DNA of 53,562 nucleotides, filler included, from Stramenopiles sp. TOSAG23-6 (lineage: Eukaryota): assembly GCA_900128565.1 (NCBI GenBank). It is 3 parts of 3 records of this genome, joined end to end, with 100 filler letters (N's around TTAATTAATTAA, not from the genome) between each part and the next. Parts side by side here need not be neighbours in the genome. Positions count along the whole stretch, not along the records: positions 1 to 17,830 come from LT636073.1; positions 17,931 to 35,702 come from LT636074.1; positions 35,803 to 53,562 come from LT636075.1. One strand, given 5' to 3'. Below the pieces are notes generated by a model. It was not told where the DNA came from. It did not search any database and worked only from the letters and a program-made list of their open reading frames with translations. Of the stretch, positions 1 to 53,562 are shown piece by piece; position 1 is the first letter of the stretch, and each line of letters begins with the position of its first letter. Position numbers and translations under genes: made by a program.

Positions 1-54
1 GTACGAAATTTTGTACCTAACGATTTTTTTTTGAAATATTTTTCCAAAATACAT

Positions 55-609
55 GCCAGCCGTAAATCAACTAGAGTTACATCCAAGATTTTCGTCTCCT
101 TCACTTCGCCAATTCGCAAAAGAGAATGGTATTGTTCTTACTGGTTACGGTTCAGGAAATAGTGTTCGTATTGAGCGTAATCCAGTAGTACAAACTATTG
201 CAAATCGTTTGGATGTTCGTTTCCATGATAAATTTCAACTTTTTTTTTCGTACGAAATTTTGTACCTAACAAAAAAACTTTTGAAATATTTTTCCAAAAT
301 ACATGTTTCTCCAATTTCGGTTATTTTAAAATGGACTCTGAATGTACGTTTTCAATTTCAACATGTATTTTTTTTTCATAGTAAATTTTGTACCTAACGA
401 TTTTTTATACACCAAAAAAAAATACAATACATAAAGGAGTTTCGGTTATTCCCAGAACAGCGAATCAAATGCATATGACTGAAAATTTAAAAGCAGCTGA
501 CGTGAACTTGACTAAAGATGATATTGCAAATATTGATTCAATGAATGAAGCTTGGCCATATTATTGGTGTCCACTGCCATTAACGCTTGATTCAAAGTCA
601 GATCTTTGA
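55..609 (+). CDS. Aldo-keto reductase, 3' part (exons 55-214, 305-343, 433-609)
   Basis: Spliced product reads PAVNQLELHP...IANRLDVSPISVILKWTLNKGVSVIPRT...ENLKAADVNLTKDDIANIDSMN, typical AKR C-terminal motifs. 5' end lies outside the window. Confidence 0.88.
215..304 (+). other. Non-canonical GT-AT intron
   Basis: gat|GTTCGTTT...TACGAAATTTTGTACCTAAC...AAAATACAT|gtt. There is no AG between the branch motif and the next intron. Confidence 0.82.
344..432 (+). other. Non-canonical GT-AT intron
   Basis: aat|GTACGTTTT...TTGTACCTAAC...AATACAT|aaa gga restores KWTLNKGVSVIP. Confidence 0.82.
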
Positions 610-846
610 ATGTATTTTTTTTTCATACCAAATTTTGTACCGAATGCTGCAATTCTAGTTACTGGGTTTAAAAAAAAAAGTAATATTTTAGTTTAAGAGA
701 AAAAGGCGATATACCTAGGTATATGTATAATGTATTGTACATACATTTATTTTTCTACCATTTATATATGAAATTTTAATATTTTCATTGTAAAATTCGT
801 TTGTCAAATTTCTTCAAGATTATTCCGAGAGTTTATTGAATCTGTA

Positions 847-3115
847 CTAAATTTCGTACCAATTTACAAATTTCTGACGTATTACTTTTCTCGAGAAATC
901 CTGGACAGAATCTTTTATAGCAAGCCATAAGACAGAACATTTCTCCTCTTTATTATTTTGTATGAGAGTTTTAGTGGTGTCACACTTGGCGGAACAAAAC
1001 TGTAAAGATAATCCACCACATATATCTACAAATTTATTAAATTTTCGTGTATTTACCCCAGCACTATTTTTCCAAATTGATGTTCTTAGTGAACTCTCTA
1101 AATCTTTTGATGTTTCTATATCGTTTGGATCTCTTGATGATTCATTTTTACTCTTTGAAAGATATTGCAAAAGTTTTTTTCTTCCTATTTTTTCAATGAT
1201 GTACTCAATGATCCAAGGACAACAGTGAAAGTCAATACCCGCAGCCTGAATATCGTGTATTGTGAAAAAATATTTTTTTTTTTTTGAATTTAAAAAAATG
1301 AATACGTACAAAATTTTCACAGTAAAAAAAAATGAAATTCAATTTTGAAAACGTATGCATTTTCGTAATCGTTTGTGTCTAATCGCCTCAAATGAGAGAT
1401 TCATTTGAGGAATATCACTATTTGAAAATAACGTGTTGATTATAATTTTCTCAAACGTTTGGAAATGGCTACTTTTATCACTTGTCGTCGTATTGAACAT
1501 CAATTGATGAAATCTATTTTTCCATGTATATTAGGAAAATATTTCAAAAAAAAAAATGAAAACTTGTTAGGTACAAAATTTCATACAAACAAAAATGAAA
1601 TTGAAGCTCCAACGTACATAGTAAAGCATTTTTTCGTAACAAATCCACATCAAATTCTGTGCCACCAAAACTGGCTCTCAAAAGCAAAGCTCGAATAATT
1701 GAAACTCCCGAAGAGTGCATTGGTTGTTTTTCGTGGTTTGTATTGTGAATAAATATTTGTTTTAGTTTAAAAAAAATCGTTAGATGTAAACTTTTTTTAC
1801 AAAAAAAATAACAATTCATAATGAAAACAAACAAAACGAAACAAAAACAATTGTTTAGATACAAAAAATCTTATGAAAAAAATATAAATTTGAAATTCAT
1901 GATGAAAACGTATGGGTAACTCGATATTGACCTGTAGAGTTTATTTTATGATTTTTATCATTTTTCAAAGAAATATTTATAAAATTATGTGAAATTTCCT
2001 GGTACTGACACGATGATATAGCATACACATATAAAAGAACAGTATGTAGGAAGAAAAAATATTTAAAATTCAAATATTTTGTTAGGTCAAATTTTGGCAC
2101 AAAAAAATAAAATATTTAAAATTCAAGTTTGACAACTTTCATCATACAGTTCAATTCCAGGACAAAAATCTTTACTCATAGCAGCCATTAACCATGATAT
2201 TTGTGGTAGTATTGGGTGTATTGAAATTGTATCCTCCACGCCTATGTATTTTGGAGAAATATTCCAAAAAAAAAAAAATGTTAGGTACAAAATTTCGTAC
2301 GAAAAAAAATTGAAAAAAAAAATTTAAACATACATGACAATCAAACGACGCAAAAGCTCCAAAAATGGATTTGTTTGAATATTTATGGAATTTTTATCTG
2401 TTTGAATGTTTATTGAACTTTTGTCATTTTTCTTCTGTCGTTTTCGTTCTTTTGATATTTCCTTATTCATCTTATATCGACGCATCAATTCAGACGCACA
2501 AGCTACAGCTTTATAAGATTCCCTCCGCCTGACAGTTTTTTGTATTATGCTTTTCAACATTGATATCGTAAGTCCACAGGTTGCACCTGTTGTTGTCATG
2601 GAAATAGGCTGCAAACTTTCCAAGTTCGTTGACAACACCATGAGAACCGACCCTTTTACTGATTTATCTATATTTTTGGCAGGAGAAAACATCCACTCTG
2701 AAGGATCAAAATGTTTATCCTTTATCTCAAAACTTGTAGTCCATCCTCCATTATGTTGAATCTTTGCTCGGGCGTTTGTTTTAGCCGCCTTACGCGAGTT
2801 AAAGTCTTCCCAATGGCACGTAAAATGTGTTCCATTAGTATGAATGATATTTGGATTGTATTCTAGGTGAAAATGCATCCCTCGTCCCTCAGCAGAACGC
2901 ATTAATTGATCAAAAGCATTTCCACCCATATTTCGTATAGGTTGCTTCGGATCATCAATCGGTAAAGGTCTCTTTTTATTTGATTGCATCATTCGTGAAA
3001 AGATATTTTCATTCGTGCGTTTCCCTTGAGCGACTTTCTTTGTATCACACATTTCGCATCGGGGCATACTCGAGTAATTTAGAAAAGTGCACAAAGGACA
3101 AGGCCATTGTGACAT
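847..3115 (-). CDS. Conserved uncharacterised protein with N-terminal RanBP2-type zinc finger (exons 3115-2334, 2243-2148, ~2047-1914, 1737-1618, 1523-1357, 1254-847)
   Basis: WPCPLCTFLN...CEMC zinc finger. Spliced blocks KSIIQKTVRR, LLRRLIVIGVED...HP...WLMAAMSK, LRASFGG, W.NRF, GIDFHC and IW...GVN.RK. One junction near 2047 is uncertain. Confidence 0.7.
1255..1356 (-). other. AT-AC member of the intron family
   Basis: tgc|ATACGTTTT...CACAATACAC|gat restores RKCDIQAAGIDFHC. The 5' end is ATACGT, not the U12 consensus ATATCC. Confidence 0.7.
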
Positions 3116-3522
3116 CGATTTTTGGATTGATTCGCAGCTGGAGCTAGTACAGAGTTCAAAGAAACACTGGGTGGTTGGCTGACGTATAAGGTCTAAGGTG
3201 TTTCGAATTGATATCAATATCAGTTTGACCAGTTTGACCGATGAAATCGCAATGAAATCGAAATCGGCGTTTTTCCAAAAGTCACCAATAACCCCTAACC
3301 CTAGCCAATTTTTTTTTGAATCGGTCAAAAATCCTTCGATATCAGATCGATCGACCTCATCTTCTGTCTTCTTCGATTCTATGGGCTCCTCCTATATATC
3401 GCTAAAATAGACTTCGTTCTTACTGAAAGGCATTTATATTGTGGATAATTATCATTTAAGATTATTCGACAATTTATAAATCCGTGCGTTGCTACTGAAG
3501 GGAGACTTTCAAACAAATTTAC

Positions 3523-6244
3523 ATGAAGCTTGAGCTCTCAGTAGACACTGTAAAAGGTGAACATGACACCCGGTCATCAGTGCTCTCCTATCTTAGCAGC
3601 AAGTCGGCTCGGATAAAATGCGACGAGTTATTTTTAACGTGGTGCTCTGAAAAGAGAACAACTGATCTTATTCTTGGTTTTATAGATACAATTGCCAATG
3701 GAGACACTATAGATGGTAATGAGCTCTCTCCAAGACTATTCTTTCCATCAAAGTCTCCTCATGGTGAAGCCAATGGTTCTCCAACTCTATCCCCACCACC
3801 GCTTTCACCCTCAGCAATACGTACAAATAACCGTAAGCAACTTTCCTCTCAGAATAAAGCTGATCATGATAATAATATCGCTGCTTTATCTATGCTATCT
3901 GTTTCTTCTTCTTCCACAGTTCTTCGAGCAGCGGGATCTACTGATATTGCACCGAAAGTATTATCGCCGACTCGTATTGACCATACTAAAGAAACGAAAG
4001 GAAATGGAATGACAAAAAGTGTTGAAGGACAACACGGTGAAAAGAAAAATGATTCAGTAAATGAGCAAACAATTTTAAGAAAGGCCGAAGAAGCGTTGAG
4101 TGTTGATAGTGATGAAGTTGAGCACAAAGAAAATAACATAATAAACCCTGACGGAACCTCAAAAGAAAATAACATAATAAACCCTGACGGAACCTCAAAA
4201 ACTCTCGTGGAGGTTCAACAACCCCGAAAGAAAATTCGACATGTCTCATCAATGGATGAAATACCGCAGTTCTATCATAAAAAAAAGGATATACCTCCTT
4301 CTTCTAGAGTCGTAACTGCTCATATAGAAGCCATTAAAAATGCCTTTTCATCATTTCCAGAAACTCAGAAAGGAATTTTGTTAGCTGATTTCGTGTGCAT
4401 AGCCAAAACACTCTGGGGTATTCCAACATTTATGTGTCCTCTTTTATTCCGACAGATTATATTACACAAAGACAAAGAAGCAGATATAGAATCATTGGAA
4501 AAAAGGCGAAATCAAGTCACGACAAATTCATCAGATGAACAAGTACGTTTTCATCATGAATTTAATTTTTTTTTCATACGAAATTTTGTACCTAAACAAA
4601 AAAGATTTTTTTTTTGAGTTTTTATTCAATACGTTTTCATCATATTTTTTTTACCTTTTTTTTGTAAAAATCATTTCGTACCTAACAAAAAAAATATTTT
4701 TGAAATATGTTTTCGCAATAAATGGTGCAAATGTAGGGCCCCGTGTGACAGTGACTGATGCAATTCACTTTTATCACCATGGCCTTAAACCATTTTCTCA
4801 TACAGAAAGAAGTATGTTTTATTTTTTTTCAATTTCGAATTTATTTTCGTACGAAATTTTGTACCTAACAAATTCTAGTTTTTTTTTTTTTAAATATTTT
4901 TCCAAAATACAATGTTTCGATTACTGAAAAGACCAGGTGTGGATTTTCTTACTTTTGATGATTTCATGCCTATGCTAGAAGAACTTCTAGCATATCATGT
5001 ATGTTTCCATCATTGATTTTATTTTTTTTGGTAGAAAATTTTGTACCTAACGATTTTTTACTGAATAAAAACAAAATATATATTTTTCACAATACACCCA
5101 GGTCTCGAATTTTTAGAATCAACGCCTGAATTCCAAGAAAAGTATGCGCGTACCGTAATCACTAGGATATACTACGTGTGCAATCGCGCTCAGAATGTTT
5201 GTTTTATCATTGATTTTTTTTTTTTACGATGAAAATTGAAAGATTTCGTATCTAATGATTTTCACATTGTAGAAAATATTTTTTAACTACACATGGTCAT
5301 TTAACTTTGAGTGAACTTGAACGCTCAAATCTTGTTGAAATGATGACTGTTGTTGACGAAGAAGAGGACATTAATAAGGTGGAACAGTTTTTTTCATATG
5401 AACATTTTTATGTTGTTTATTGTAAGTTTTGGGAACTTGATACTGATCATGATTTTTTATTGACACCAGCTGATCTTCTTAGATATGGAAATCATTGTTT
5501 AACAAGAGGAATTGTCGATCGTATTTTTGAGAAAGCAATTCGGCCCTTGAATCCAGGTCCCCCTGATAAAATGACGTATGAAAATTTCTGTTATTTTTTT
5601 CTTTCTGAGATAGACAAGTCAAATCCAATATCTATACGATATTGGTTTCCATTAGTTAATGTAAATTGTGATGGTGTGTTCGTTTTCGTCATTCATTTCA
5701 AATTTATTTATTTTTAATACAAAATTTTGTACCTAACGATTTTTGTAAACCCAAAAAAACATTTTTTTCATAATACATAATTAGGCATCGAGAAATGAGA
5801 GAAATGTATGCTGAGCAGCTTCAAAGAATGGAATCATTAGGGCATGAAGTTGTGCCATTTGAGGATGTTATGTGTCAAATGTGTGATTTACTACAACCTG
5901 CAATTCCAGGAGAATTTCGTGTTCGTGATTTTGTACATTGGGATAAGATTGAAAATTCAGGTGTATTTTTTGACATGTTATTTAATCTAAGTGAATTTCT
6001 TGCGTATGAGCAAAGAGATGTTTTTGCACAAAGACAAATGAAACAAAATGAACCAAATACAACACCATGGGAAAGGTATGCTAGAGACGAATATGCGAGA
6101 TTAGCGATGGAAGAAGAGATGCGTGAGATGGGTGTTTCTGATGAAGACAATGAATTCAATGAATTTGAGCATACCGATGAACTTGATAACTGGGGGACTG
6201 GTAGTCGTATCATGTATGATGGTGAAATGGAAGATGAAAAGTAA
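3523..6244 (+). CDS. PPP2R3: Protein phosphatase 2A regulatory subunit B'' (PR72/PR130 family; exons 3523-4542, 4724-4811, 4913-4998, 5098-5196, 5295-5677, 5779-6244)
   Basis: [50 protein letters not shown]-hands and [17 protein letters not shown] are hallmark B'' motifs. Confidence 0.93.
4126..4200 (+). repeat. 36-bp in-frame tandem duplication ([12 protein letters not shown] x2)
   Basis: aaagaaaataacataataaaccctgacggaacctca occurs twice. Confidence 0.9.
4812..4912 (+). other. Non-canonical GT-AA intron
   Basis: aga a|GTATGT...AATACAA|tg ttt restores [11 protein letters not shown]. Confidence 0.78.
4999..5097 (+). other. Non-canonical GT-AC intron
   Basis: cat|GTATGT...AATACAC|cca ggt restores the conserved HPGLEFL. 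The CAG 4 nt downstream would cause a frameshift. Confidence 0.85.
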
Positions 6245-6411: not shown

Positions 6412-9400
6412 CTACATTTTGAGCTCAATATGTGCTCCACGCTGAATCAATTTCATTGCGGCACTGTAACTAATAGCAACAGGCACACCACTGAGTTTCA
6501 TAGCATTGTATAAATCCGGTGCATCCTCTATTTTCGCATGCATAGCCATATTTATCAAGCAGTCATACGTTGCAGTATTGGGACTTAAATCGTCATTGAC
6601 AAGAGCTTTGAAAACTGACATTGCCCTTTTCCATTGTGATGCGCGACTGCATGCGTCGAGTACAGAGTTATAAGTAGTTAGTTTAGGCTGAATTTGAAAC
6701 CTCTTCATCTCCCACAATATTCCGACAGCTGCATCAGCCGCGGGAGGTTTTGCATATTTACAAGTAGAAATTATCGCAGTAAATGTGGAGAGATCTGGTC
6801 GAATATCCCTTTGAACCATAACATTGAAAACGTACATAGACTCCCGCCATTTACCCGTTTTACATAAGTCGCGTAGTATTCTCAAATATAGGCTTCTAGC
6901 TTTCACCATGTCACTAATGGTTACATGTGCAGTAGGAGTTATTTTTCTAACTACTTCAAGATTTGCAATAAAATCTGGAGCTATCGTGTATCTTTCTGTT
7001 TCTTCCTTTTCTATATTAGTAACTCTACGATTTTGCAATACTCCATTAGATTTCTTTCGTTTCGATGCTAATTGTATAGCATCATCAATATCCCCTCGTT
7101 CATCCACAAATTTGGCACGTAATTCAGCAAGTTGAGAATTTTTAAGTTTCTCTAAACTTGCCAAGTCATTTTTTAAACGAGTTACTCGAGAATGTTGAGC
7201 CCGGAAAGCTGGATTTCTTTTAGTTTCATATACGATGCATCGTTTCCTTAATTCTTGTAGCTCGGTGTGNATTTCTTTTCCAGATGCAAATGGTAGTTGT
7301 AAGCCTAATGCACGCATAGCAAATGCTATATGAGAAGCATTGCTCTTATCTTGAAGTAACTCCCCAACATGTTCAACGCATTTAGTTACCCGTTGTCTCC
7401 AACCAGAGCTTTCAGCTAGGGAAAGATGTTCTGTAATACTCAGAGCTTGATTGATGAACCGTAAATATTCAGCCTCTAGCTCGACCAACTTTTCCTTTGC
7501 CTGGCATAGCTGTACACGTCTCTGTGATACAATCATATTACTGTTGGTCTTTATACGATCATAATTGAGTTGTGTGCTCTCAGTTATTTGATGGCGCTTA
7601 ATAGATAAATCTGCTAATTCCGTTTTTGCCTCAGATGCTGCAATAACTTTTGCAATTCTTTCTTCCATTATCTTTTCGCGTTCTTGTATTACACGAGATG
7701 TTTCAGTTTCTGCCTGGCGAATTTGGTTTTTCACTGCTACGAGGAGCTCATGCGAAGAATGCTTACCATCACGCATCCATCTCTGTTTACATTTCATGGC
7801 TGCGTGACGTAGTTTCATTGAGCGCTGTTTTGGACTAAGATTAGTATGTTTTTTTGGAACATCTATATTTATGTCCTCGACATCTTCAATATTTTCTATT
7901 TTCTTTTGAGAGCCATGTTTCTTCTGTGTATCAGAAAATAATCTTCCAAACATCATGGCATATATTCGTAAGATTCCATCTGCCCTCGCCCCAAATCCAG
8001 GTGATGGCTTGCAAAGACCTTTTCGAATATTCATGTGTTGAAGTTTAACCCATTTAGCCATTTGTGCAACATATTCCCTTGGAAGAACATACGGCTCATC
8101 GTGTCCAGGTGGTGAAGCATCGAGACTAGCACCACGTAAAAGAAGGAGCTCTGTTGCATCAGCACATCCCCACTTAATACACTTGAGAAGTAATCTACTT
8201 CCATCAACAATTGTATCTGGGTCTAAACCCCGAGAAAGTAACGTGGCAACAAATGCAGCGACAGGGAATTGCCATGCTCGACGAAATAATCGATCCAACC
8301 AACACACACTACCCATCGCTGCCATCACAGGAGCAGAAAACAAATACTCAGGCCGAGGTGCATGGTGTGTCATTTTTATTATTTTTCGTACTAAAGCTGG
8401 TTTCCAAAGGTTCCAACTAGCTTTTGTTCCACCAATGGTAGTGTTTGCTGCAGCGCGTCGAAGTGCGTGTTGCTTTGGATCTAACTGAGACCATGNTTTG
8501 TTCTTTTGAGCAAATCCATCCGTTGAGCAAAGTAGGCGACGAATTATCATCACAGAGGAATAGCAATTCTTCCAATTGTCCGTGATATTAGGTGCAAGGA
8601 ACGCTGGGTCTGTACCAGTGGACATAGCAAGTCTACAAAACCATGGCCTCCATTGACTTTTTTGCACCTCGCTAGACATAATTTTAGCACGCCATACTTT
8701 ACATACAAGTTCTGCCCGACAAAGCTCTCGGGGGTTCAACACAAGACCTCGGCTTAATGCGCATTGCAAGGCCACCACTGCACCTTGCATACTCTGAAAA
8801 CGTTGTCTTGCTTTATAGTAATGCCAAGCTGCTTGGGCTTTTCGTACCGAACGAAGATATCTTGCTCGCCGACGGTGTATAAACCCTCTCACAAAACGTT
8901 GTAAATTACGCATCGGGCGCATAGTTCCTTTTACCTTTTTAACTAAATCCCAATGGAATAAAACCATCGATGTACATCGTCGTGCCACTTGTTTTCTTTC
9001 TCTTAATATTTGCATTCTATCGGCCCTTATAAGCGCTTCAATTCTATCAGACTTTAATGCTTTATGTCTCTGACGTTCCATAGTTTCCCACCTCTGTCGC
9101 ATGAACATTCTTTTATCTGCATCAAGATCTTTCATTTGGCGCATTGTGCGTTTAATAGTTTCCAGGCGTGTTACGGATATACCATGCGTCACACCCGCTT
9201 CAGAATCAGAATCTGAAGCATCTGATAGAGGATCGCCATCGACAACACTATTTACACGCATTATTTGGGTTGATTCGATTCTGTCTTTATCCCCGTGATA
9301 TGTTGAACAATGAACAAAAAGTTTCTCTGATTCGACGAGACCTCTCATAATTTTTAATTCTTTACTTGGTTTATTTTCTTCTCTGAGCTTTCTCTTTTTT

Positions 9401-17805: not shown

Positions 17806-17830
17806 TTCAACCTTTTGGACAGATTCATTT

Positions 17831-35802: not shown

Positions 35803-35901
35803 TGGAAAAATATTTCAAAAAAAATCTAAAAAAAATTGTTAGGTACAAAATTTCGTATGAAAAAAAATGTAGACAAAAAATTAAAAAAAAATAAAACATA
35901 T

Positions 35902-37977: not shown

Positions 37978-38621
37978 TTTTATGTTTTACGTTTGTCTGT
38001 AATGTTTGTCAATATATTTAGAATGAATATATATGAGAAGAAGCTCGTGCAAGATATCCGCTTAGAATTGCAGCTCGAGAATTGTATATTCTAAAACGTT
38101 GGGGAAACAAAATAAAACAAATATGGAAAGTATTCCATACTCATGAATGCCACTAATGAAAGATGGAAACATGAATATAATGTGAAACACTAGATACATT
38201 CAAAACACATGGGACAAATTACTTTAACTTACCGTTATTGCTTCGATAAAAAACAGAGGAAATCTTTTTTATGACGAGAAATAACAGAAATAGGTAGTAC
38301 CGTAGGACCTACTGTATATCTTGTTTTTGAGCGTTTTATCACCAAAAATGAATCGATATAATACTAGTACCGGGTAACCAATCAAACTCGAGTTGAAATA
38401 TCGAAAATGCATCGAAAAAAATACAATTCGAAGAAGAAGCGCGATTTGTCGACGTCGACAGTCCACTCACACACACAGTCATATATTTTTTACATTTGCT
38501 ACACATTAACGAAGTTCACTACAGCAATACACCTTGTTGAATTTTGACATCACTATTACATATCAAAGTACTTAATAAAATAGTTGTATTGTATATAATA
38601 TTTTAATCCTTTTGATCAAAA

Positions 38622-40293: not shown

Positions 40294-41988
40294 ATGAACA
40301 ATCATAGATGGCAAGATAGTGAACAGAGCCAAACCAAAAACAGTCTTAGTTCCGAAAGACGTTCCTCCACATCTACAACAACACTTCCTTCTCCGCAGAT
40401 GTATTCTCCACACCAACCTAGGCAGTCAAACTACTATCCTGCGCAACATGCTCACCAATGGTCCGGGCAAATACAAAACGGGGTTGATCATTCCTTTAAT
40501 CAGCAACATACATCAATTTACCCCGTAAATGTTCCTCAACAACAAGTAAGTGCCGGAATGTACTCAGCCAACGAAAATGGGTTTCAAATGTACACGAATG
40601 AAACCCCACTTCAGACAGCTGCTACTCACCAAATACCCGGTATACAAAATCATGTCCCAATATCCTATATACGCCAGCCTCCCAACATACATCAGCCTCC
40701 CGAACCCTTCCCTATTGCCGCGCCTCAATCAGTTCAGCCAGTTCCTCAATCAGGACAGATTGGAGGCGTTCCTGTTTTTCCTCCTTATAATCCGACTCCA
40801 AGCCCGCCACTTGTAACACCTACTATTAGCTCCCTATACACGAATAATCCAAATAATAATGAAACATTTTCAAACGCAGCTCTTGGTAATTATATTGCTG
40901 AATTTAGTCGATCTGCTGGAGTTCCATATGGTGCTGCTGCCATTAGCCAAAATAATGTTGTACATACTCGACACCCAACCAGAAATGTAAGAAATTCGGT
41001 AAATGTTCCAAAAAGTTCTCATCATGCAATCAATCCGATGATACCGAATACGTCTCATCATAAAACCAATACGGCGATGCCAAATATGCCAAATATGCAG
41101 AAGCAAAAAAAAATGAATAACAGTTACCATACTCACACGAATAGGAGTATGTTTTTTTTTTTTTCAAATTCTAATTTTTTTTCGTACGAAATTTTGTACC
41201 TAACAAATTTTGAAATTGTTTTTGAAATATTTTCGCAAAGTATATGAACGTCACCGATTGATGTGACCCGCCCAAATTCTGGTGGAAACAAGAAAACGTC
41301 TCAAAGCAATGGCTTAGCTGCACCTGGCGTTGTAACAAAAGTTATTCTTGTTGCTGGATTAAAACCTGGAATATTTGATACAGGTAAGGCAGCCACAGCA
41401 GATAATTTAGCAGTCTTGCTAGGAGTATACGGAGATGTCATGAAGATTAAAAAGTTGAAACGATCTAGTGCAAGCCGTCGTGGCGAGGAACAAGCGCTTG
41501 TTGAAATGGATATGATCCATCAAGCTTGTTCTGCGCGCGAGTTTCTAAATGGCTTCCTGGGTTTAGACTTACGTGCATCACGCCAATTATTGGTAAAAGA
41601 TAGAGCCGCATCCAATTTTTTTAATTCTATTTTTCATAGACACCGAGGGGACTGTGGACCAAAATATATAGCTTATTTGTGCGCTCCATCGAATCGACTT
41701 CACATATCAAATATACCAAATGGTATCTCTTTAAGTGAATTAAGTTTGTTATGTGCGCAACGTGGAAAAGTTATGCGGTTGAAACTCCTCCCTCCGATGT
41801 TTCCAACGGCAGCTAATGGCATAATCACCAATGATGCTTTAGTGGAGTTTAGCACTGAAGCTGATGCTGCGCGGGTGATGGTTCATCTTCAAGGATATGG
41901 TGCGCAGGTTATGAAATGTAATCAAATGAACATTCAAAATCAGGGTCTTGACCTTCGATTTGCTGCTGCAACCACTACCTTTGACTGA
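40294..41988 (+). CDS. PTB/hnRNP L-like two-RRM protein with a Q/P/N-rich N-terminus (exons 40294-41146, 41246-41988)
   Basis: LLGVYGDVMKIK...QALVEM...FLNG and APSNRLHISNIP...ALVEF resemble PTB RRM3-4. GT-AT intron at 41147-41245. Confidence 0.75.
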
Positions 41989-42198: not shown

Positions 42199-42218
42199 GT
42201 TAGGGTTAGGGTTAGGGT
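42199..42218 (+). repeat. Interstitial (TTAGGG)3 telomere-type repeat
   Basis: gttagggttagggttagggt. Confidence 0.8.
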
Positions 42219-43247: not shown

Positions 43248-44594
43248 TCATTTAACTTTGACTTGATTAAATTCAGGTGCATACTTTAATTTGTTCTTGT
43301 GTCTTTTTCCCTTTATATGTTCTGAAAACTGCATCATACTATTGAACTCCAAATCACACACTTGACATTTAGGTTTAGTTTCTCGTTTTTTATTAGCGTT
43401 CGAAATTAAACTTTGTTTAAATTTAGGGTTAGGACTTGAGTATCTTGAGTATCTTGAGTTAGGGTTAGGGTTAGTCGTAGTTCTCATTTTATGTTTGCCT
43501 TTTATACTTAGATCTGCTTTTTTTGTTGCTGAATTAGCTGAATTACTTGGATTCGTTTTATCGTTAATATTTTGTAACAGTTCCAAATCAGTGATTGGCG
43601 TTCCATGATTTACCTCACTTGGAACATCAATCACAGCCTCCCACAATTTTATACCAATGAAAGCGTCATATGCAGCATAAAAGATCATCTTGTCAGTGTA
43701 ATGTTCCATTTCCCAATTTTTCATTTGTTGTTTTTTTGACAAATTGTAACTTAAAATAGAGGCGGTTGCGTAGCGTAATCCACAGCGATTTAATTGAGGC
43801 CATCTAATTCTTATCATATCTTCTAGGTCTATAAAAGATCCGCTCGTACAAAATCCAGGAAAACGTTTTTTCATTTGTACTTCATCTTGGGATATGCCTA
43901 CACCAACTTTCATAATATCTGGATTTCCGATAATATTCAACAGTGTACGTATCTGTTTGGAAGCTCTGAGATAATATGGTTCGGAGACTCGAAAGACATA
44001 GGCTGTTTTCAAAGTAGAGAGTTGTATTAACGAGATTAAATTACTCTGACCTCCCTTATGAAATTTCGGTTTTGTTTCAGTATCGAACCCTAAAACCATT
44101 ATTGGTTCCTTTTTCGGTTTGTTTGTTCTACTGTAGAAACCACACAAACAATCACCGCCCTCAATTTCTTTCTGTAATGTATTGAGAGCTATGTTATATG
44201 TATCTGCTGTATCTGCGAACATTACGTTGAGATGTCTCGGTGTAAACAGTGGAAGGTCCTTCACGGCGTCCTTTTCAACGTCACGTAGATAAGGATCTAT
44301 TGGACCTAACAACGTATGCCGAGCAGGAGTAAAACCCCCAAGTTTAAAACCATCATCATATATCTCTTCAATCTTGTTTACATGAGAATCTCTGAACATT
44401 TTTAGTACATCGACAGACCAATTTCCCGCACCAATACCAACTTCTTTCTTTAATGAGGTTTTCACAAGTTTTGTTTTACGTATCCATTTTTCCCATGGAT
44501 TAGAAAATGTATATGCATATATTAACAAACTGTCTCTGTGGCAAGACATATTTGCCCTCAAAAATGGAGGTAGTGGGGACATTTTAGAGGACAT
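43248..44594 (-). CDS. WRN/EXD2-type DEDDy 3'-5' exonuclease with C-terminal matrin/U1-type zinc finger
   Basis: LGFDTE (ExoI), KVGVGISQD (ExoII), YAAYDA (ExoIII) and CQVC...HIKGKRH. Confidence 0.87.
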   Translation of the reverse strand: MSSKMSPLPPFLRANMSCHRDSLLIYAYTFSNPWEKWIRKTKLVKTSLKKEVGIGAGNWSVDVLKMFRDSHVNKIEEIYDDGFKLGGFTPARHTLLGPIDPYLRDVEKDAVKDLPLFTPRHLNVMFADTADTYNIALNTLQKEIEGGDCLCGFYSRTNKPKKEPIMVLGFDTETKPKFHKGGQSNLISLIQLSTLKTAYVFRVSEPYYLRASKQIRTLLNIIGNPDIMKVGVGISQDEVQMKKRFPGFCTSGSFIDLEDMIRIRWPQLNRCGLRYATASILSYNLSKKQQMKNWEMEHYTDKMIFYAAYDAFIGIKLWEAVIDVPSEVNHGTPITDLELLQNINDKTNPSNSANSATKKADLSIKGKHKMRTTTNPNPNSRYSRYSSPNPKFKQSLISNANKKRETKPKCQVCDLEFNSMMQFSEHIKGKRHKNKLKYAPEFNQVKVK

Positions 44595-45659: not shown

Positions 45660-48600
45660 ATGCCTAGTGACAGCTCTTCAGAGAATTCTGACAATTCTGC
45701 GTCTGATAATTTTGAAGATTCTGACGTACAGTGGGTTGGTTCAGGGACTAAAAGGAAAGTTTTAGGTCGGAATCAGGTATGTTACGATGCCTTCTCACGC
45801 AATAATAGAGTGTACAGAATTGGCCAGTGTATACTATTGTTATCCGACGACGAGAACGTTCCATACATAGCGCAGATACAAAAACTGTATCTTGATACTA
45901 AGACCAACGAGAAATCCCTCATTGCTAATTGGTTCTTCAGAGTTTCAGATACACAGTTAAAAAAGGAGGATATTCCTCCTCAAATGGAGCCTAATGATAT
46001 TTTTCAAAGTACACTGACTGATTCTAATACATTGAGTTCCGTCATTCGCCACGTGAGAGTACTCAGAACAAAGTACGTTTCTATCATATCTGTTGTATCA
46101 TTTTGTAAAAAACCGTACGAAATTTTGTACCTAACTACAACAACAAAAAATTAAATATATTTTTTCACTATAGGTGCAATGGAGACGCTGGTTTTGGTCC
46201 CTTTACATGTCGTTTTCTTTATGATCCAAAAAAAAACAAATATAAGGAACTTAATTTATCAAATTGTTCAAAGTTCACTCCAAATGATCTGGATCATTTT
46301 CAAAATCAAAAAAATCAAAAAAATCAAAAATCAAGTCACACGGACTTGGATCTCCTAAAAAAAGAAGAAGAAAATAATAAAAACAGATCATCTCCTAGAA
46401 TTGGAACTAGTTATCAAGTTCAAATTCCTTCTTTGTGTATATCTACATCTAGAAGAGATCCAAAGCGTTTGACTCATCTCCCTAACCCTAATGAGACATA
46501 CCAGAACCCTAACCCTAAACACAATATAATCAATACTAATGATATAATCAACGGTAACAATACTAAAAACACTAATACTATTTACAATACTAACAATACA
46601 TTCTCCAATACGGTTGATCATGCAGTAGACCCTAACCCTAATAACCGCAATACTCCAATTGATCCTGCAGAATTTGCAAAATTTGCAAATATTATGAAAC
46701 AAAATGTGTATCAAGAAAAATCGTTTTGGATGGATAAAATTGTTCAAATCGATGGTGATACAATTCGAGAATATTCAATAAATTATATAAATGCAAAAAA
46801 AATGAAGTCAGGTTGGATTTATGCCAAAGTCTTATCTGGTGGGAGAACTACACACAACAATAACCCTAACCCTAGTGCTTGTACGAACCCTAACCCTACA
46901 AAAAACGCCACAACAACAACAATAATACCTAAAAAAATGATGAAACATGAATTAAATACTATACCAAGCCCTAACCCTAGTACTCACTCTTCTATGAATA
47001 TTTGTTCTGATGAGAAGAGTCCAAAAATAACGAAAATGGTAAAGGTACCTGATGATATCCCTCTGAACCCTAACCCTAGTGACAATCACTACAACGACAT
47101 TTGTCTTTCGATTATTCTGCTCCCTTCAGGAAATAAATTAGAGAATGTAAAACTTACACATGTGAGAGGGTTCGAAATTCAAGATGTATGTCATCGAATT
47201 CTAACCTTAATAACACACACTAACAACAGTAACTCTACAAAACAAAAAAAATTGTAGTCATTTGTGTACCTAACAAAATTTATGTCCTAACAAATTTTTT
47301 TTTTTTCATACCTAACGAAAAAAAAATATATATATTGTCCTACACTTTATGATATTTTAACAGAATTTTTTGTTCAACACAAATGTGATATCGTGTTGGC
47401 TACTCAACCATCAAAAGTGAAGGATTTTATTACACATTTGCGTAGCTTGACATGTATGTTTTATTATTTTTTTTTTCCAACCGAAAAAAAAAAAATCGAT
47501 TTTTTTTTTTTTTTATAGGAAATTTTGTACCTAACAAATTTTCAAAATTTTTTTTGAAATATTTTTCCAAAATAAATGGTCTATTGAAGCAGAACATTCA
47601 TATTTACATTCCTGTAAAATGCATGGAAATGATGATTTCAAAAACATTGCAATGGACGTGTCCAAAGTACGTAAAGGCACAACTGTCAAGGACATTATAG
47701 TACGTTTGGCTTAGGTTTCACTTTTCTTTTTGTATTTTTTTTTTTTCTTTTTGTATTTTTTTTTCGTAGGGAATTTCATACCTAAGAATTTTTTTTTTTT
47801 TCAATTTTTTTTTCTAAATTTTTTTTTCGTAGATAATTTCGTACCTAACAATTTTTTTTTTTTTTTTGAAAATATTTTTCATACTATTTTCTCATTACTG
47901 GTGGAGGAAAAAATTACCAATATATTTAAGACTTCAACTTCATAGATCAGCTGTTGTTATATATAACAAACATATTTCAGAATTGGAACTGAAAAATATG
48001 TATGAAAAATCTATCACAAATTGTGTCAAACGTAAAACTTTGAGGGAACGTAATTGGACCTGTGACGTTTGTATGTTTTTACATCATTTCCAAATTTTTT
48101 TTTTATAGGAATTTTTTTTTCGTACGAAATTTTGTACCTAACAAAATTTAAATTTTTTTAAATTTTTTTTTTTTTTAAATTTTTTTTTTAATTTTTTTTT
48201 CCAAATTTTTTTTGGTGTTTTTCCAACGAAATTTTGTACCTACCAAAAATAATTGTATAGCTAACAAAACACAAAATATACTTTTAAATATTGTGTCATA
48301 ATGTATGCACATTTGTCAATGAAAATTTATCAAAACAATGTGCGATTTGCTCTTCGTCCCGTGTCTCTTCATCTTTATTAGGAAGGGAACGATGTCAATC
48401 TATTCTCAAAAATGAAAAGAAAATTTTATGTGATTCTTTAAATAGAAAGAATAAGGTAAGAAAAAAAGATAGCAAACATACAAAAAAAAGAAAATCACAA
48501 AAACACGAAAAAAGTAAAAAAAATAAAAAGAATAAAAAAATTCGACGTACGAATGAAAAACAACAAACAAAAAAACTTTGTATTTTTAAAAGTCTTACTA

Positions 48601-49912
48601 ATAATAATAATAATAATAATAATGATAATAATGATGATAATAATGATGATAATGCTAGCTCGAATGGAATGTCATCAAATGAGACTAACACTTGGCCTGG
48701 TTGGGTACGTTTGTATCATTTTATTTTCTTTTTTTTTTTTTTGTTTTTTTTGAACATTTCATACCAAACAGTTTTTTTTTTTAATTTTGATTTTGTTAAA
48801 CAATATTATTTTTTTATAAAAAATTTGTACTAAAGACGAATAAAAGTTTTTTTTTGATATATTTTACACATATTATGTTTTATGTAAAGAGAATGACACA
48901 GTTCAAGATATTGCAGATAAGTATAATATGGATGTTCATCAACTAATATCTATGAATAAATGTAATTATAACGGTTTACGACCAAATGCACGTAGGTTTA
49001 TTTTTTTTGGTTTTCATACGAAATTTTGTACCTAAAGATTTTTTTTTTTTTTTTTGTTCGAATTTTTTTTTTAACAAAAAAACAAAAAAACAAAAAAACA
49101 AAAAAAAAGTAACATTTTATACCTAACAAAAAAAAAAAAAAATATTTTTTACAATGTATAACTAAAAGAAGGGACTTGGTTAGAGATTGGTTGTACTGAT
49201 TCAGATGAAGATATGACAGAGGTAGAGTCTTTACCCACAACAACTACCATACCTAGCCCTAACCCTAATGATTTGAATACAAAAAATACAAAACATACAA
49301 AAAATACAAAAAATACAAAAAATACAAAACATACAAAACATACAAAACATACAAAAAATACAAAAAATACAAAACATACAAAAAATACAAAACATACAAC
49401 AATGGATACCAAAGTGGAAAACCCCAATAATAATATAAACGCAGGATCTCGTGTAAACACTATACTTCGACAAGTGAAAAACAGATGTACTTTTTTTTTT
49501 TTTTTTTTTTTTTTCGAATTTCGAATTTAAATTTTTTTTCATACGAAATTTTGTACTTAACGAGAATTAATTTCAAAAAAATATTTTTTCACAATACAGT
49601 TAATAAAAAGTCCCAACCTGAAAATTTCAATAGCTTTTGTCAATATCTCTACCAGTTAGCTAGAAAAGAAATTTCAACTGAAATGTATTTTTTTATTTTT
49701 TCAATGTAGAAATTTACAAATTTAAAAAAAAAAAAAAATATATATATATTTTCATACGAATTTTTGTACCTAATATATTGTACATTTTTTTAAAAAATAT
49801 ATATATATCACAATAAATGGTTTTGACAGGATTTCGTCATATTTTACGGGATGATTTAGATTTATTACATGCAGTCAATGTTTTTATACAAGATCACGTC
49901 AATGGGTTGTAA
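45660..49912 (+). CDS. Chromatin regulator BAH - ELM2 - SANT - RanBP2 zinc finger - LysM-like - PAH (exons 45660-46072, 46174-47185, 47351-47453, 47578-47699, 47890-48070, 48307-48704, 48874-48991, 49160-49486, 49600-49684, 49819-49912)
   Basis: BAH (PYIAQI...WFFR...FTCRFLYD), PRIGTSYQVQIP (ELM2), WSIE...HGNDDFKNIA...HYWW (SANT), WTCDVCTFVN...CAIC, ENDTVQDIADKY (LysM-like) and VKNRF...DLLHAVNVFI (PAH). Confidence 0.75.
49276..49400 (+). repeat. Coding 9-bp tandem repeat (NTK/HTK)n
   Basis: aatacaaaa and catacaaaa units inside an exon. Confidence 0.9.
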
Positions 49913-50543
49913 ACCCTAACCCTAATCAATGGGTTGTAAACCCTAACCCTAACTCTTTCTTTAAATATGTATCAATATTGATTGTTTTACAATAAAACCC
50001 TCTCCCTCTATTGTTTGTATATCAAAATATATATTATATATGGATGTATTATTAGGGTTAGGGTTTCGATGTCGTACAAAATAAAATCAAATGTAAAATT
50101 TTTGATTTTTCTGACAAAAAAAATGGAGTCAACACCAATTTGGAATTTTGGATGTAGTTTGGAAAAATATTTCAAAAAAAAAATTCTAAAAATTTTGTTA
50201 GGTACAAAATTTCGTATGAAAAATAAATTCGATTTTTTTGTAAAAGAGTCACGACGACAAAGTCGACAAAGTAATAAGTAAAAATAATAATAAAAAAACT
50301 ATTTTTATATGAAACATAAAATTAACACGAAATCAGTATTTCTGTTGACATATTTTTTTTTTAAACCCTACACACATTAGCATTAAAAATCTAAAAAAAT
50401 CTAAAAAACCTTAAAAACCTTAAAAATCAAAAATATTGAATTAAAAAAAATGTGTCTGTTTCATTTGAAAATCAAATTAGATTTTTTGTTTTTATTAAAA
50501 TTTTGTACCTAACGATTTTTTTTTTGAAATATATTGACTCAAG

Positions 50544-52310
50544 TTACAATGAAAAAAGTTTTGTATTTGAGAATGTTTCAGATAATCCACAAATATTTTG
50601 TTCTTCTAGGGTTAGGGTGTTTAACCCTAACCCTAATTCACTAATATTTGGTTCGTCGAGAATTCGTTGAATTTGAGCTCTTTGCGTTGATTCAATCGTT
50701 TGTGGATGAAAAGTACATTCTTCTAAATCACGGTCTTTTAATTTTTGTAATTTTGCGGCATCTTTTTTTTTCTGTTTGTCTCTACTAGGATCATTATGTG
50801 AAAGCTTAAATGAAGAGTATAACAATATGTAAAAAAAAAAAAATGTTAGGTACAAAATAAAGTACGATTTTTTTTTTCAATTTTTTTTTTCAAAATTTTT
50901 TTTTTTTCAAAAAAAAAAAATATTATTAAATTTGTATGTAAAATATATATAATATATTATATATTATATATAAAACCTACATGGCTCAGGCATCGTTATA
51001 TGTTCAGGTGTTGAAGGATTATTATGAAAAACTTTGTCTTCTCGATCACGCTTCTCCTGGTCTAATTTCTTTGCAAGTTCCTTTACTGTATTATGAAAAA
51101 ATATTTTTTTTTTTTGATTTTTTTTTTTTAGGTTTAGGTACGAAATTTCGTACGAAAAAATTTAGATAAAAAAATTAAAAAAAAAAAAAAAAAACATACA
51201 TTCGAGGTATCTACCCAATCCTCGAACAACAACTGGTTCAGATGTATTCATTTTAACATTCTTTTTAGCACGACGTGGTTGAAAAGTACATGTATGTTTG
51301 GACAATATGTATATATATATATATATATTGTTAGGTACGACATTTGTATAGTTTAAAAAAAAAAAAAAAATTTTTAGGAAAAAAAAAATTTTAGGAAAAA
51401 AAAAAAAAAAAAAATTAAATTTAAAAAAAAAATGTACATGCCTGGAGTGCATCATCCTTTTGTAATGACCGTATCTCAGCCAATTTAAAATCTCGTTCTC
51501 TCTTGTGACTTGCAATGCGTTCACCGAGTAGACGAGTATCAGTTACCCCTGCACTAAATTTATTCTTACCACTAACTGTATTCTGCGTTATTGTTACATC
51601 TGGTTTGAAACTACCTTGATTGTGAAAAAATATATATTTTTTTTTTTTTTTTTTTAGGTACAAAATTTCCTACGAAATTTCATACAAAAAAAAAAAAAAA
51701 AAAAAAAACGTACATTTTTTTTTAAATTTTNNNNNNNNNNNNNNNNNNNNNNNNNNNNNNNNNNNNNNNNNNNNNNNNNNNNNNNNNNNNNNNNNNNNNN
51801 NNNNNNNNNNNNNNNNNNNNNNNNNNNNNNNNNNNNNNNNNNNNNNNNNNNNNNNNNNNNNNNNNNNNNNNNNNNNNNNNNNNNNNNNNNNNNNNNNNNN
51901 NNNNNNNNNNNNNNNNNNNNAAAAAATTTTTTTTTTTTTTTTTTTTTTTTGTCGGTAAAAAAAAAAAAAAATCGTTAGGTACAAAATTTCGTATGAAAAA
52001 AAAAAAAAATTGAAAAAAAAAAAAAAACATACACACCAAGTCTTTGAAATCGTTCTTCTGGTGTTTCAGACATTCTCGAAGGTCTCGTATGGAGGAGTAT
52101 TGCATCTGCATTACCAATATCTGGTGTAAAAGTACAATGTTGATACTCTCCACTCATTACGACTCTTTCAGATTCTGAATGTGGTTTTTTACTTTTCGAT
52201 TTTTTTTGAAACATGTATTTTGGAAAAATATTTTGAAAAAAAAAAAAAAAAAATCTTTTAGTTTAGGTACAAAATTTTCAAAAAAAAAAAAATTCGATTT
52301 TTTTTTACCG

Positions 52311-52347
<37 letters not shown>

Positions 52348-53449
52348 TTTTTTTTTAAAAATTTTTTTCCCAAAAAATTTTAAATTTTTTTTTTTTGAGG
52401 TAAAAAATTTCCAAGAAATTTTCAAAAAAAAAAAAAAAAAAAAAAAACGTACATTCTTTTCTAAATTTTGAATCAGCTTCAATTAGAGTTCGCATTTTTG
52501 AACGTGCACCTCGATCATTTTTTGATAACTCTGTGATACTTGACGATTGACCTAACAGTTTCGAAATTTTATTAATTTTTGGAATATGATTAAATTGGTT
52601 GTAATATTTTTCTTTAATTGAATTTCTCACTGCATTGAATTTTTTAGCATCGGATAAATAGTGTGAAAAAATATTTTTTTTTTTTTTTTTTTTTTTCGGG
52701 AAAAAAAAAAAAAATCTTTAGGAAAAAAATTTTGTTTAAAAAAAAAAAAAATTCATTTTTTTTTNCANAAAAAAAAAAAAAAAAAAAAAAAAAAAACATA
52801 CATTTTTTGTCGTTCAAGAAATTGTTTGGTTCCGTGTCCTTTATATGCTTTTTTATCCTTGACTATTTTTTTTGACATGCTATTGATACGTGGTTGAAAT
52901 GGACAGGCTTGTTCCACACGAATAAGATGTTCTTTCTGTCGTAACATTTTGCGATGTTTATGTATTACAAAAAAATATTTTCAATTTTTTTTTTTTTTGT
53001 TAGGTACAACATTTCGTATGAAAATTTAAAAAAAAAATTAAATGTATAAATACAACATGCATGCTGTACAGCATCTGACAGCAGTCTCTGAGTTGTATCT
53101 TTTGAGCGATAATTGAGTCGATCATGTTGTTTAGCTAATTGTTTACTACGTTTCCCAATGGTAGGTACGAATGTTAAATCTTCATTCGATTGATAGGTAT
53201 ATATATTGTGAAAAAATATTTTTTTTTTTTTGATTTTTGAAAAAAAAAAAAAATTGTTAGGTACGAAATTTCGTATGAAAAAAAAATTTAGATAAAAAAT
53301 TTTAAATGCAATTGAAACATATCCAATCGTAACCGTTGTAATCTTTGATTTTTTTCTCTTTGCAAATGATGGATTCGGTGTTCAATTGGGATATATTCTG
53401 TACCTCTGTCATGATATTTTTGAGATACGATTGCTTTTGAAGTTGGATT
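50544..53449 (-). CDS. Intron-rich protein with repeated (C)TFxP motifs, 5' end outside the window
   Basis: Spliced exons give LTFVPTI, CPFQPRIN, CTFTPDI, SFKPDV, CTFQP, CTFHPQT and TMPEPFKLS. About 10 family introns and one N-gap. Confidence 0.65.
52960..53060 (-). other. GC-AT member of the intron family
   Basis: cat|GCATGTT...GTACCTAAC...GTAATACAT|aaa joins the exons in frame. Confidence 0.65.
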
Positions 53450-53470
53450 ATAAAGTGTGAACAAATATTT

Positions 53471-53501
<31 letters not shown>

Positions 53502-53505
53502 GGGA

Positions 53506-53559
<54 letters not shown>

Positions 53560-53562
53560 ATA

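Follow-up and report, generated by a model that had tools for sequence, protein, structure and literature searches.

We analysed a stretch of 53,562 nucleotides (nt) from Stramenopiles sp. TOSAG23-6 (GCA_900128565.1), hereafter the window, in which parts of records LT636073.1, LT636074.1 and LT636075.1 are joined by 100-N filler at 17831-17930 and 35703-35802. The window is AT-rich (33% G+C), eukaryotic and dense in genes. Pfam and PDB matches identified an aldo-keto reductase, a PP2A B'' subunit, an RFC1/ATAD5-like AAA protein and a ubiquitin hydrolase; a CC2D2A/CEP76-like ciliary protein, a PAP2 phosphatase and Vps62-like, U2A'-like and PTB-like proteins; and a 3'-5' exonuclease, a BAH protein and a 3820-codon open reading frame (ORF) with EF-hand and PPR repeats. 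An Rfam search of the window returned no RNA family. The host organism is a marine protist; the sequencing runs that contain the stretch carry seawater or marine metagenome labels, and the best protein matches of a PP2A-B'' exon were a EukProt entry (83%), then oomycetes (64-66%), green algae and plants, with no animal among the 120 matches listed. Copies of one short repeated element interrupt genes of the window, and the central observation of the original prediction, a module whose removal restores reading frames at ends that are mostly AT, is real and is confirmed here.

The repeated element and its strand

The element is typically about 85-120 nt long. It starts with GTAYGTTT, carries a CTAAC-type box inside a conserved core of 16-20 nt and closes with a T-run followed by YCAMAATAY-AT. 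The 20-mer core TACGAAATTTTGTACCTAAC, with <=3 mismatches allowed, matched the window 38 times against 0.01 expected. For an 18-mer from the 3' end, where most copies carry TTTTTYCAMAATAC variants, there were 12 matches, with 0.78 expected. We picked 20 clean copies by eye for a profile, which gave 106 matches at E<=10 and 48 at E<=1e-4 in an nhmmer search of the window. Of these 48 strong matches, 44 lay within gene spans, spread over at least 10 different genes, and all 44 were on the gene's own strand (p = 6e-14), in agreement with the earlier estimate of about 50 copies of a module interrupting genes in the sense orientation.

The remaining four strong matches lay outside coding sequence: a fragment directly after the reductase stop codon (604-647, plus strand), a core fragment upstream of a gene start (36759-36797, minus strand), a copy without its 5' end between two convergent genes (50153-50230, minus strand) and a copy antisense to the minus-strand neighbour gene whose stop codon it abuts (50456-50531, plus strand). 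Apart from a frame change in the PAP2 gene near 35340, the reading-frame interruptions examined in the window were all copies or diverged copies of this family; no ordinary GT..AG intron unrelated to it was found among them.

Across 45 aligned units the most conserved positions were +1 to +8 (G41 T44 A42 Y43 G42 T44 T45 T42, i.e. 91-100%) and -9 to -1, with A at -2 in 40 units and T at -1 in 36. The 3' consensus was TTTTTYCAMAATAY-AT, and the downstream exon began with G in 24/45 units. Among the 44 introns defined below, the first two bases were GT in 39, AT in four (1356, 1913, 21390 and 53322) and GC in one (53060); GTACGT or GTATGT stood at the 5' end of 30, and a CTAAC-type motif was present in 40, mostly 32-50 nt before the end, where it would serve as the branch site. 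Judged by its sequence, the family thus has a GT 5' site that could pair with U1 and U6 and a CTRAY box upstream of the 3' end, as in U2-type introns, and lacks their YAG 3' site (AG in 4/44).

Outside the window, the 20-mer core had one match in a Bacteroidales metagenome-assembled genome, which we took as chance, and none in viral contigs. A metagenome scan with a hydrolase exon gave 46 loci, all distant (<=49% identity, except one 111-residue match at 61%) and none with the element core; a tblastn comparison of the spliced hydrolase with those 46 loci gave no informative high-scoring segment over the junctions.

Reading frames and intron ends

The predicted cut lies two bases past the ATAC-like anchor ('anchor + 2 nt'), in an intron that starts at GTAYGT. 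To each of 44 introns we applied a frame test, comparing the three 3' registers for the length of the stop-free frame that each leaves across both sides. The tandem pair at 22012-22210 was counted once; the four copies outside coding sequence were excluded, as were those at N gaps or window ends (1-54, 17931-17983, 35803-35901, 51615-51713, 51969-52032 and 53453-53562). The predicted register gave the longest open frame in 40/44 introns (P about 2e-15 for a chance rate of 1/3); at 47700-47889 and 53201-53322 it was not the best, yet left 55 and 63 codons open. The test was not fully blind: in a first pass 30/35 were best in register, three or four of them only by a tie, and for several diverged copies the 3' end was placed with motif and frame both in view. 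Intron lengths are spread over all three classes modulo 3 (20, 14 and 10 introns), so that retained copies would break the frames, and phases 0/1/2 occur 13/23/8 times.

Removal in this register restored whole genes. Without its five introns the PP2A-B'' gene gives a 711-residue reading, from just inside the ORF, with a terminal stop only, and without its seven the ubiquitin hydrolase is a single ORF of 1142 residues. Both reductase junctions were gap-free within +-6 residues in 6/6 homologues. For PP2A-B'' the same held for junctions 3-5 in 7/7 homologues and for junction 2 in 5/7, while junction 1 falls in a variable stretch with gaps in 3/7. The gap-free junctions include those of an AA-ended intron (4912) and an AC-ended one (5097). 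In the AAA protein, the KYRPRCVGDIIG (KYRP-x7-G) spacing, which we take to be a feature of RFC1-type proteins, is intact once both units of 22012-22210 are removed.

The last two bases of the 44 introns were AT in 31, TT in four, AG in four, AA in two, AC in two and TG in one, the last belonging to an intron that does not fit the register (2040-2147); the commonest final triplets were CAT (20), TAT (7) and AAT (4). The exceptional ends that had been listed earlier all stood: AA at 4912 and 1738, AC at 5097 and 1255, TT at 22375, 25971, 47889 and 52656, and AG at 22743, 46173, 49599 and 51086. So did the claim that frame restoration needs an AT end in most cases. A fifth AG end, at 51615, adjoins an N gap and lies outside the 44.

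The AG dinucleotide did not predict the cut. The first AG at least 8 nt past the CTAAC-type motif was the functional end in 4/40 introns, exactly the AG introns, and cutting there restored the frame in 18/40, the chance level. In 8/40 an AG between the motif and the functional end was skipped. The clearest case is the minus-strand intron 25615-25703 (GTACGT..TTTTTTTACAGTAC-AT), which ends TTTTTTTACAG|TACAT: the TTTTTTTACAG lies 5 nt ahead of the functional end, and 100 codons are open in the CAT register, compared with 21 and 18 in the alternatives. The diverged plus-strand intron 5197-5294 (GTTTGT..ACAC-AT, homologue-checked) skips a TAG 22 nt before its end, and the homologues have no insertion there. 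An AAG 5 nt upstream of the end is skipped in the PTB-like gene intron 41147-41245 (plus strand, GTATGT..AAGTAT-AT). The border shifts permitted by the flanking repeats described below never give an AG end, the alternatives being AC, CA, TG and GT. There is thus good in silico support for a 3' cut that does not depend on AG. The original prediction had proposed a 3' site set by motif, distance or structure rather than by AG, and its denial of AG stands on the frame test, the homologues, the skipped AGs and the chance performance of the first AG. Structure finds no support in the folds, which are no better than shuffled sequences (see below), and the variable branch-to-end distance speaks against a pure ruler.

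The two bases before the intron are identical to its last two in 22/44. Overall the preceding exon ends in AT in 24/44, or about two thirds by the 45-unit alignment, often as CAT. Among the 13 non-AT ends the flanks also matched as AA/AA (4812) and TT/TT (22272 and 26063), where about 0.4 matches are expected (p about 0.01, hand estimate). These are direct repeats, not complementary ones, which argues for a target-site duplication rather than an RNA helix. This 2-bp duplication brings a 2-nt uncertainty of register to half of the introns: in those 22, GT..AT, TG..CA and AT..AC are equally valid from sequence.

The same introns might then be cut 2 nt upstream at both ends, as AT..AC introns (ATGTAYGT..AATAC) of a U2-type AT-AC or minor-spliceosome-like kind. 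The messenger RNA (mRNA) would be identical in 22/44, owing to the duplication; AT stands directly before 24/44, and AC closes most anchors; a first-base A with a last-base C is a known compatible pair in splicing; and at 4999-5097 the odd GT..AC becomes AT..AC with the protein unchanged. The CCTAAC box also resembles the minor-type branch box TCCTTAAC, so that part of the family could be read in the manner of U12-type AT-AC introns. By a hand count over the 44, however, GT..AT holds at both ends in 28 and AT..AC in about 16, and the 5' dinucleotide of the shifted register is far more variable (AT in 24, then AA, GC, TT, GT, TA, GG and others) than GT, found in 39/44. At 5678-5778 (plus strand, GTTCGT..ATAC-AT, upstream flank GT) the GT..AT register yields a Val (DGVIR) kept in 5/7 homologues, whereas AT..AC yields Ile. 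Nor does the family carry U12-type marks: the minor-type 5' box ATATCCTT is absent, the consensus being GTAYGTTT rather than RTATCCTT; and the distance from branch to end, mostly 32-50 nt, is longer than in minor-type introns, whose TCCTTAAC branch lies close to the 3' end. We consider the AT..AC register improbable; where the flanks differ, GT..AT appears the more regular reading.

In GT..AT terms, 22/44 introns keep the downstream AT while the upstream pair varies. Diverged copies at 5197, 41147, 48071, 48705, 48992 and 50980 have an altered anchor and keep the final AT, and 27717 keeps both. In our reading, the terminal AU is itself under selection.

Route of removal and origin of the family

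The strict sense orientation of the genic copies favours strand-specific removal at the RNA level and disfavours excision from DNA. The latter would make the segments comparable to the internal eliminated sequences of ciliates, with an expressed genome free of them; such elements do share short flanking direct repeats and precise frame restoration, but excision need not heed strand, and 44/44 genic copies are sense. Run X2, labelled a seawater metagenome and an independent sample, bears on the same point. It holds long pieces over the stretch with few differences (e.g. 4238 nt with 16 other letters), and two of its DNA contigs (records 5 and 7) extend from inside elements into exons, which shows that a second data set also has the elements in its DNA; among the rows listed, none of the DNA contigs skipped a copy. 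DNA reads lacking the segments had been named as a finding that would speak against splicing, and these contigs carry element-exon joins instead. The elements are thus neither absent from DNA nor strand-neutral, and we regard DNA excision as very improbable.

Assembly chimeras, dead genes or ribosomal bypass of the segments seem less credible still. N gaps and long homopolymers adjoin several copies, and CAT often stands both ahead of the element and as its last three bases, like a take-off and landing pair. Against this, the same element-exon joins recur in the second DNA data set, more than 40 loci regain their frames and homology, and with the phases given above CAT seldom falls on a codon. 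On this strand, frame, phase and second-DNA-set evidence we rejected translational bypass, pseudogenes and DNA excision.

Three RNA-library runs and one DNA run were compared with 17931-35702. Contig depth was high over the elements in all four and was not used, as contig depth cannot rank the parts of a gene; exon stretches lacking RNA cover were likewise left out of account. For one 413-nt contig of the poly(A) RNA library, X8 record 25, the match to the window is confined to 26060-26385, that is, the exon between two introns (26064-26387) plus a GTAC common to the intron start and the next exon. The two introns, both on the minus strand, are 25971-26063 (GTACGT..ATAC-TT, flanks TT/TT) and 26388-26487 (GTATGT..ATAT-AT, upstream flank TA). 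At the low end the match stops at 26060, after the GTAC, where the next base is G in the intron and T in the exon; this stop is predicted by a spliced join at the TT-ended intron. At the high end it stops at 26385, well before an in-frame AG 21 nt inside the intron, and the leftover 72 and 15 letters continue into neither intron. This contig is a good hint of removal at the RNA level, not proof. Among transcript-derived proteins, the exon query 26065-26385 gave no match, and PP2A-B'' and reductase exons matched relatives only (best exon identity 83% and 88%).

Three related reductases from other marine assemblies (P0133, P0143 and P0175) each break off into unrelated residues, at different points of the conserved C-terminal region. 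These breaks resemble ORF calls running into unrecognised introns, and the introns of relatives may likewise escape gene finders.

If the copies leave the RNA, they could do so without a spliceosome, by a euglenid-like route in which pairing between the element ends would draw the two cut sites close. There is weak complementarity between the termini (AUGUAY with AUACAU) and the minimum-energy fold pairs both ends in 3/6 copies; non-canonical ends with repeats resembling target-site duplications are typical of such introns (PMC11282704). The folds of six copies with flanks were, however, no stabler than shuffles in 6/6 cases (z -1.7 to +1.0), unlike the stable end-joining helix of euglenid-type introns; the variant flanks AA/AA and TT/TT are direct repeats rather than complementary; and the yeast-like GTAYGT and CTAAC, needless for that route, persist in diverged copies. 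We hold this route to be unlikely, about on a par with the AT..AC register. The signals instead suggest that removal is probably by the spliceosome.

Several marks point to a mobile origin. Besides the flanking duplication, the ends are short inverted repeats of about 4-6 nt, ATGTAY.. (5') and ..RTACAT (3'). At 22012-22210 (plus strand) two units stand in tandem, 22012-22120 (GTACGT..ATAC-AT) and 22121-22210, with one AT common to both. Compound introns occur at 1738-1913, 4543-4723, 47700-47889, 48071-48306 and 52213-52452. Duplication, tandem units, inverted ends and copies outside coding sequence in either orientation together resemble the signature of a DNA-transposon-derived introner. The explanation we favour, with fairly good confidence, is that the copies are spliceosomal introns and constitute a single introner family, descended from short DNA-transposon-like elements of non-autonomous type, that would have spread by DNA transposition. 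The original prediction had the module and its ends but neither the 2-bp duplication, the 2-nt register ambiguity and the A-starting introns nor this introner character.

Few signals in eukaryotic gene expression are as constant as the terminal AG. In current structural models the spliceosome reads its two bases through separate contacts, A(-2) with the branch adenosine and G(-1) with the intron's first G, G(+1). In the mechanism that we propose, the major spliceosome would recognise GTAYGT and the CTAAC branch site in the usual way and would join the exons after YAU, or loosely A-N, behind the T-run and CAMAATAY, 32-50 nt from the branch. The cut would remove the element and one copy of the 2-bp duplication (usually AT, in a CAT|G-like target), so that the original reading frame is restored exactly. 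With A at -2 nearly fixed and the base at -1 apparently free (U>G>A,C), the A(-2)-branch contact would be kept and the G(-1)-G(+1) contact relaxed, which would also suit the four introns starting with A. At about even chances, we suggest that the 3' consensus has moved from YAG to YAU with the last base free and the 5' and branch sites canonical, that the second step has become independent of first-G/last-G pairing, and that this shift allowed, or was driven by, a burst of a transposon with 2-bp target-site duplications that now supplies every intron seen in the window.

A number of points weigh against the introner and spliceosome reading. Two of the 44 introns misfit the register, both on the minus strand: 2040-2147, a diverged copy (GTATGA..CATAC-TG) needing +1 or -2, and 52213-52452, a 240-nt compound intron (GTACGT..ATAC-AT) needing -1 or +2; both are diverged or adjoin long homopolymers. 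No splice-junction sequence was seen among the 15 of 323 joint rows listed, all of them cross-matches between copies. The high end of X8 record 25 falls 2 nt short of the predicted 26387, and its explanation needs an assumed polymorphism, while the RNA-library contig X7 record 18 (22298-22489) begins inside intron 22272-22375 and is thus RNA that was not spliced or else DNA that entered the library. Only about 4-6 nt make up the terminal inverted repeat; an autonomous element was not seen in the window, and an empty site was not found. In the 22/44 introns with unmatched flanks the downstream AT is constant and the upstream pair varies, a pattern not explained by simple target-site duplication. 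The conservation of GTAYGT and CTAAC could partly stem from recent copying rather than selection. Finally, changing the last G blocks the second splicing step in yeast and mammals, so a spliceosome that accepts U, A, C and G there would be unusual.

Introners, multi-copy transposon-derived spliceosomal introns, are described from Micromonas, Aureococcus, dinoflagellates and others (PMC9860276, PMC12130899). As in those families, near-identical introns occur here in unrelated genes with their own splice signals, short flanking duplications and short inverted ends, and mRNA length is restored on removal; the described families are GY..AG whereas this one is GT..AT, and the duplication is 2 bp here against the 3-9 bp quoted for introners. 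Introner surveys begin from annotated introns (PMC9860276, PMC12130899), and one checked 'unfamiliar' splice sites against GT/GC/GA/AT 5' and AG/AC 3' ends (PMC12130899), so that a GT..AT family would be easy to miss.

By analogy, the nearest precedent is Fritillaria, in which AT is the most frequent 3' end (44% in F. pellucida, 34% in F. borealis; bioRxiv 10.1101/2025.08.15.670264) and the introns derive from non-autonomous DNA transposons, with removal ascribed to the U2-type spliceosome (bioRxiv 10.1101/2025.08.15.670264, PMC11282704). A prevailing 3' AT, a T-rich tract before the end and a transposon origin are shared. In Fritillaria, by contrast, GT is found at a minority of 5' ends (the leading pairs are AG/AC and AG/AT) and termini are very diverse, whereas here GT begins 39/44 introns, with a yeast-like GTAYGT and a strong CTAAC; moreover, Fritillaria are larvacean animals and the best protein matches here are to oomycetes, green algae and plants, not animals. 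The earlier view that the known exceptions differ in structure was therefore overstated, although 5' ends and termini do differ, and its claim that the system is unique was too strong given a precedent with frequent 3' AT. Amoebophrya is also a marine protist with multi-copy non-canonical introns, amounting to >60% of its introns and bearing target-site duplications and terminal inverted repeats (PMC11282704). Its duplications are variable (3-5 nt), as are both borders, and its U1 small nuclear RNA is reported missing (PMC11282704), whereas the 5' site here looks compatible with U1 and U6. The introns of euglenids and hemistasiid diplonemids share non-GT/AG borders, duplication-like repeats and pairable ends with this family, but have extensive end pairing and no conserved GT or branch signals (PMC11282704, PMC12621601), in contrast to the canonical signals and shuffle-level folds found here.

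No report of a GT..AT intron family was found in the literature searched, with supplements and many subscription papers lying outside it, and we regard the combination of AT-ended transposon-derived introns with canonical 5' and branch signals in a protist as new. If the proposal is true, a free-living protist with textbook 5' and branch signals, about 70% AT ends and good AGs skipped would be a clean natural experiment on how the position of the 3' splice site is really fixed. Together with Fritillaria there would then be two independent cases of transposon-intron invasion alongside relaxed recognition of the 3' end. Gene finders limited to GT/GC..AG would fragment nearly every gene of this organism, affecting gene catalogues from such genomes.

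Individual copies and neighbouring features

For the copies called introns, the register rests on the frame test together with any further evidence named. The window opens on the 3' part of a plus-strand intron cut by its start (1-54), ending ..AAAATACAT|G; the split codon xxG that precedes PAVNQ corresponds to Met in homologues. The plus-strand reductase introns are 215-304 (GTTCGT..ATAC-AT; best frame, gap-free in 6/6 homologues) and 344-432 (GTACGT..ATAC-AT; homologue-checked), both flanked AT/AT. On the minus strand follow 1255-1356 (ATACGT..ATAC-AC, with an A start and an AC end), 1524-1617 (GTACGT..ATAC-AT, flanks AT/AT), the compound two-unit intron 1738-1913 (ATACGT..ATAC-AA) and 2244-2333 (GTATGT..ATAC-AT, flanks AT/AT). 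The PP2A B'' compound intron 4543-4723 (plus strand, GTACGT..ATAA-AT) was homologue-checked. At 4812-4912 (plus strand, GTATGT..ATAC-AA, flanks AA/AA) HTER-M-FRLL is colinear with P0002, and at 4999-5097 (plus strand, GTATGT..ATAC-AC, upstream flank AT) LAYH|PGLEFL is gap-free in 7/7 homologues.

The distribution of introns across the window is clearly uneven. An 11.4-kb ORF of 3820 codons (6412-17874, minus strand) contains no copy of the element, while neighbouring genes have about one per 300-800 bp, and the 3.8-kb exon 30244-34023 is likewise free of copies. The 5' half of a minus-strand copy at 17931-17983 is cut by an N gap. The RFC1/ATAD5-like AAA gene has the plus-strand intron 20181-20269 (GTACGT..ATAC-AT, upstream flank GC). 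Further plus-strand introns lie at 21149-21243 (GTACGT..ATAA-AT), 21390-21482 (ATATGT..ATAC-AT, with an A start), 22272-22375 (GTACGT..CTAA-TT, flanks TT/TT), 22639-22743 (GTATGT..ATAT-AG, in the same register), 22836-22930 (GTACGT..ATAC-AT) and 24498-24589 (GTACGT..ATAC-AT, upstream flank GC), the last being the copy from inside which X2 record 5 runs into the exon. Minus-strand introns are 27608-27717, diverged with its TCTAAC box kept (GTATGT..TCTAAC..CAATAC-AT), 28017-28100 (GTACGT..ATGC-AT), 28251-28339 (GTACGT..ATCC-AT) and 28477-28591 (GTACGT..ATAC-AT). X2 record 7 starts inside the CC2D2A-like gene intron 30153-30243 (plus strand, GTATGT..ATAC-AT), and a minus-strand copy with an ATATGT start at 35803-35901 has lost its 3' end in an N gap.

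On the plus strand of the third record lie 46073-46173 (GTACGT..CTAT-AG), 47454-47577 (GTATGT..ATAA-AT), the compound intron 47700-47889 (GTACGT..CTAT-TT; register compatible, not best), the long compound intron 48071-48306 (GTATGT..ATGT-AT), the diverged intron 48705-48876 (GTACGT..TATT-AT), the compound intron 48992-49159 (GTAGGT..ATGT-AT), 49487-49599 (GTACTT..ATAC-AG) and 49685-49818 (GTATTT..ATAA-AT). The minus-strand introns are 50825-50980 (diverged, GTAGGT..ACAT-AT), 51086-51199 (GTATGT..ATAC-AG), 51290-51437 (GTACAT..ATAC-AT), 52656-52801 (GTATGT..CTAT-TT, upstream flank AT), 52960-53060 (GCATGT..ATAC-AT, with a GC 5' end) and 53201-53322 (ATATGT..ATAT-AT, with an A start; register compatible, not best). 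Also on this strand are a copy adjoining an N gap (51615-51713, GTACGT..ATCA-AG), a copy of which an N gap leaves the 5' half (51969-52032) and a probable intron cut by the window end, its 3' boundary estimated by eye (53453-53562). Copies within 47450-53562 are often compound, with very long A or T runs. The N gaps of 44-190 bases (17831-17930, 35703-35802 and 51731-51920) all lie inside or adjoin copies, and the DNA contigs of run X2 also break at copies; the family thus fragments assemblies. A minus-strand gene of many short exons (50535-53562), each with a Cys-x-Phe-x-Pro motif (ECTFHPQ, CTFTPD, CPFQPR, CTFQPR), has one element copy between nearly all successive repeat units.

Two genes for RNA-binding or spliceosomal proteins lie in the window. 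An intronless U2 snRNP A'-like gene (38616-39854, plus strand; LRR_9, E = 7e-54) encodes a spliceosome component within the same window as the element copies; its product has a SAP domain at the C-terminus, and to our knowledge LRR_9 with a C-terminal SAP is not familiar from U2A' proteins. The PTB-like RNA-binding protein (40294-41988, plus strand) is interrupted by intron 41147-41245, and its exon 2 matches the RRM3-RRM4 region of polypyrimidine-tract-binding proteins (PDB, E = 3e-8). The frame change in the PAP2 phosphatase (35330-35350, minus strand), of one or two bases near 35340 between ..TTIIDP and SMFADE.., has neither element nor intron-like sequence; either the assembly is wrong at a CCC run or the true start is the ATG just downstream.

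Tandem repeats occur in coding sequence, with a 9-bp unit, AATACAAAA, present 13.8 times within a plus-strand exon (49276-49399) and other in-frame repeats at 4126-4200 (36 bp, 2.1 copies) and 39480-39554 (39 bp, 1.9 copies). A telomere-like 11-mer, CCCTAACCCTA, occurs 17 times in the window against 0 expected: at 3293-3303, 42201-42217, 43460-43470, 46480-47078 (7 copies), 49257-49267, 49914-49951, 50053-50063 and 50607-50635. The seven copies at 46480-47078 lie in ORF 46109-47257, all on the coding strand and reading Asn-Pro-Asn-Pro; others are intergenic, two of them forming an inverted pair at 50607-50635. A role of this 11-mer as a promoter box is conceivable, as is a second family of insertions, of tiny size.

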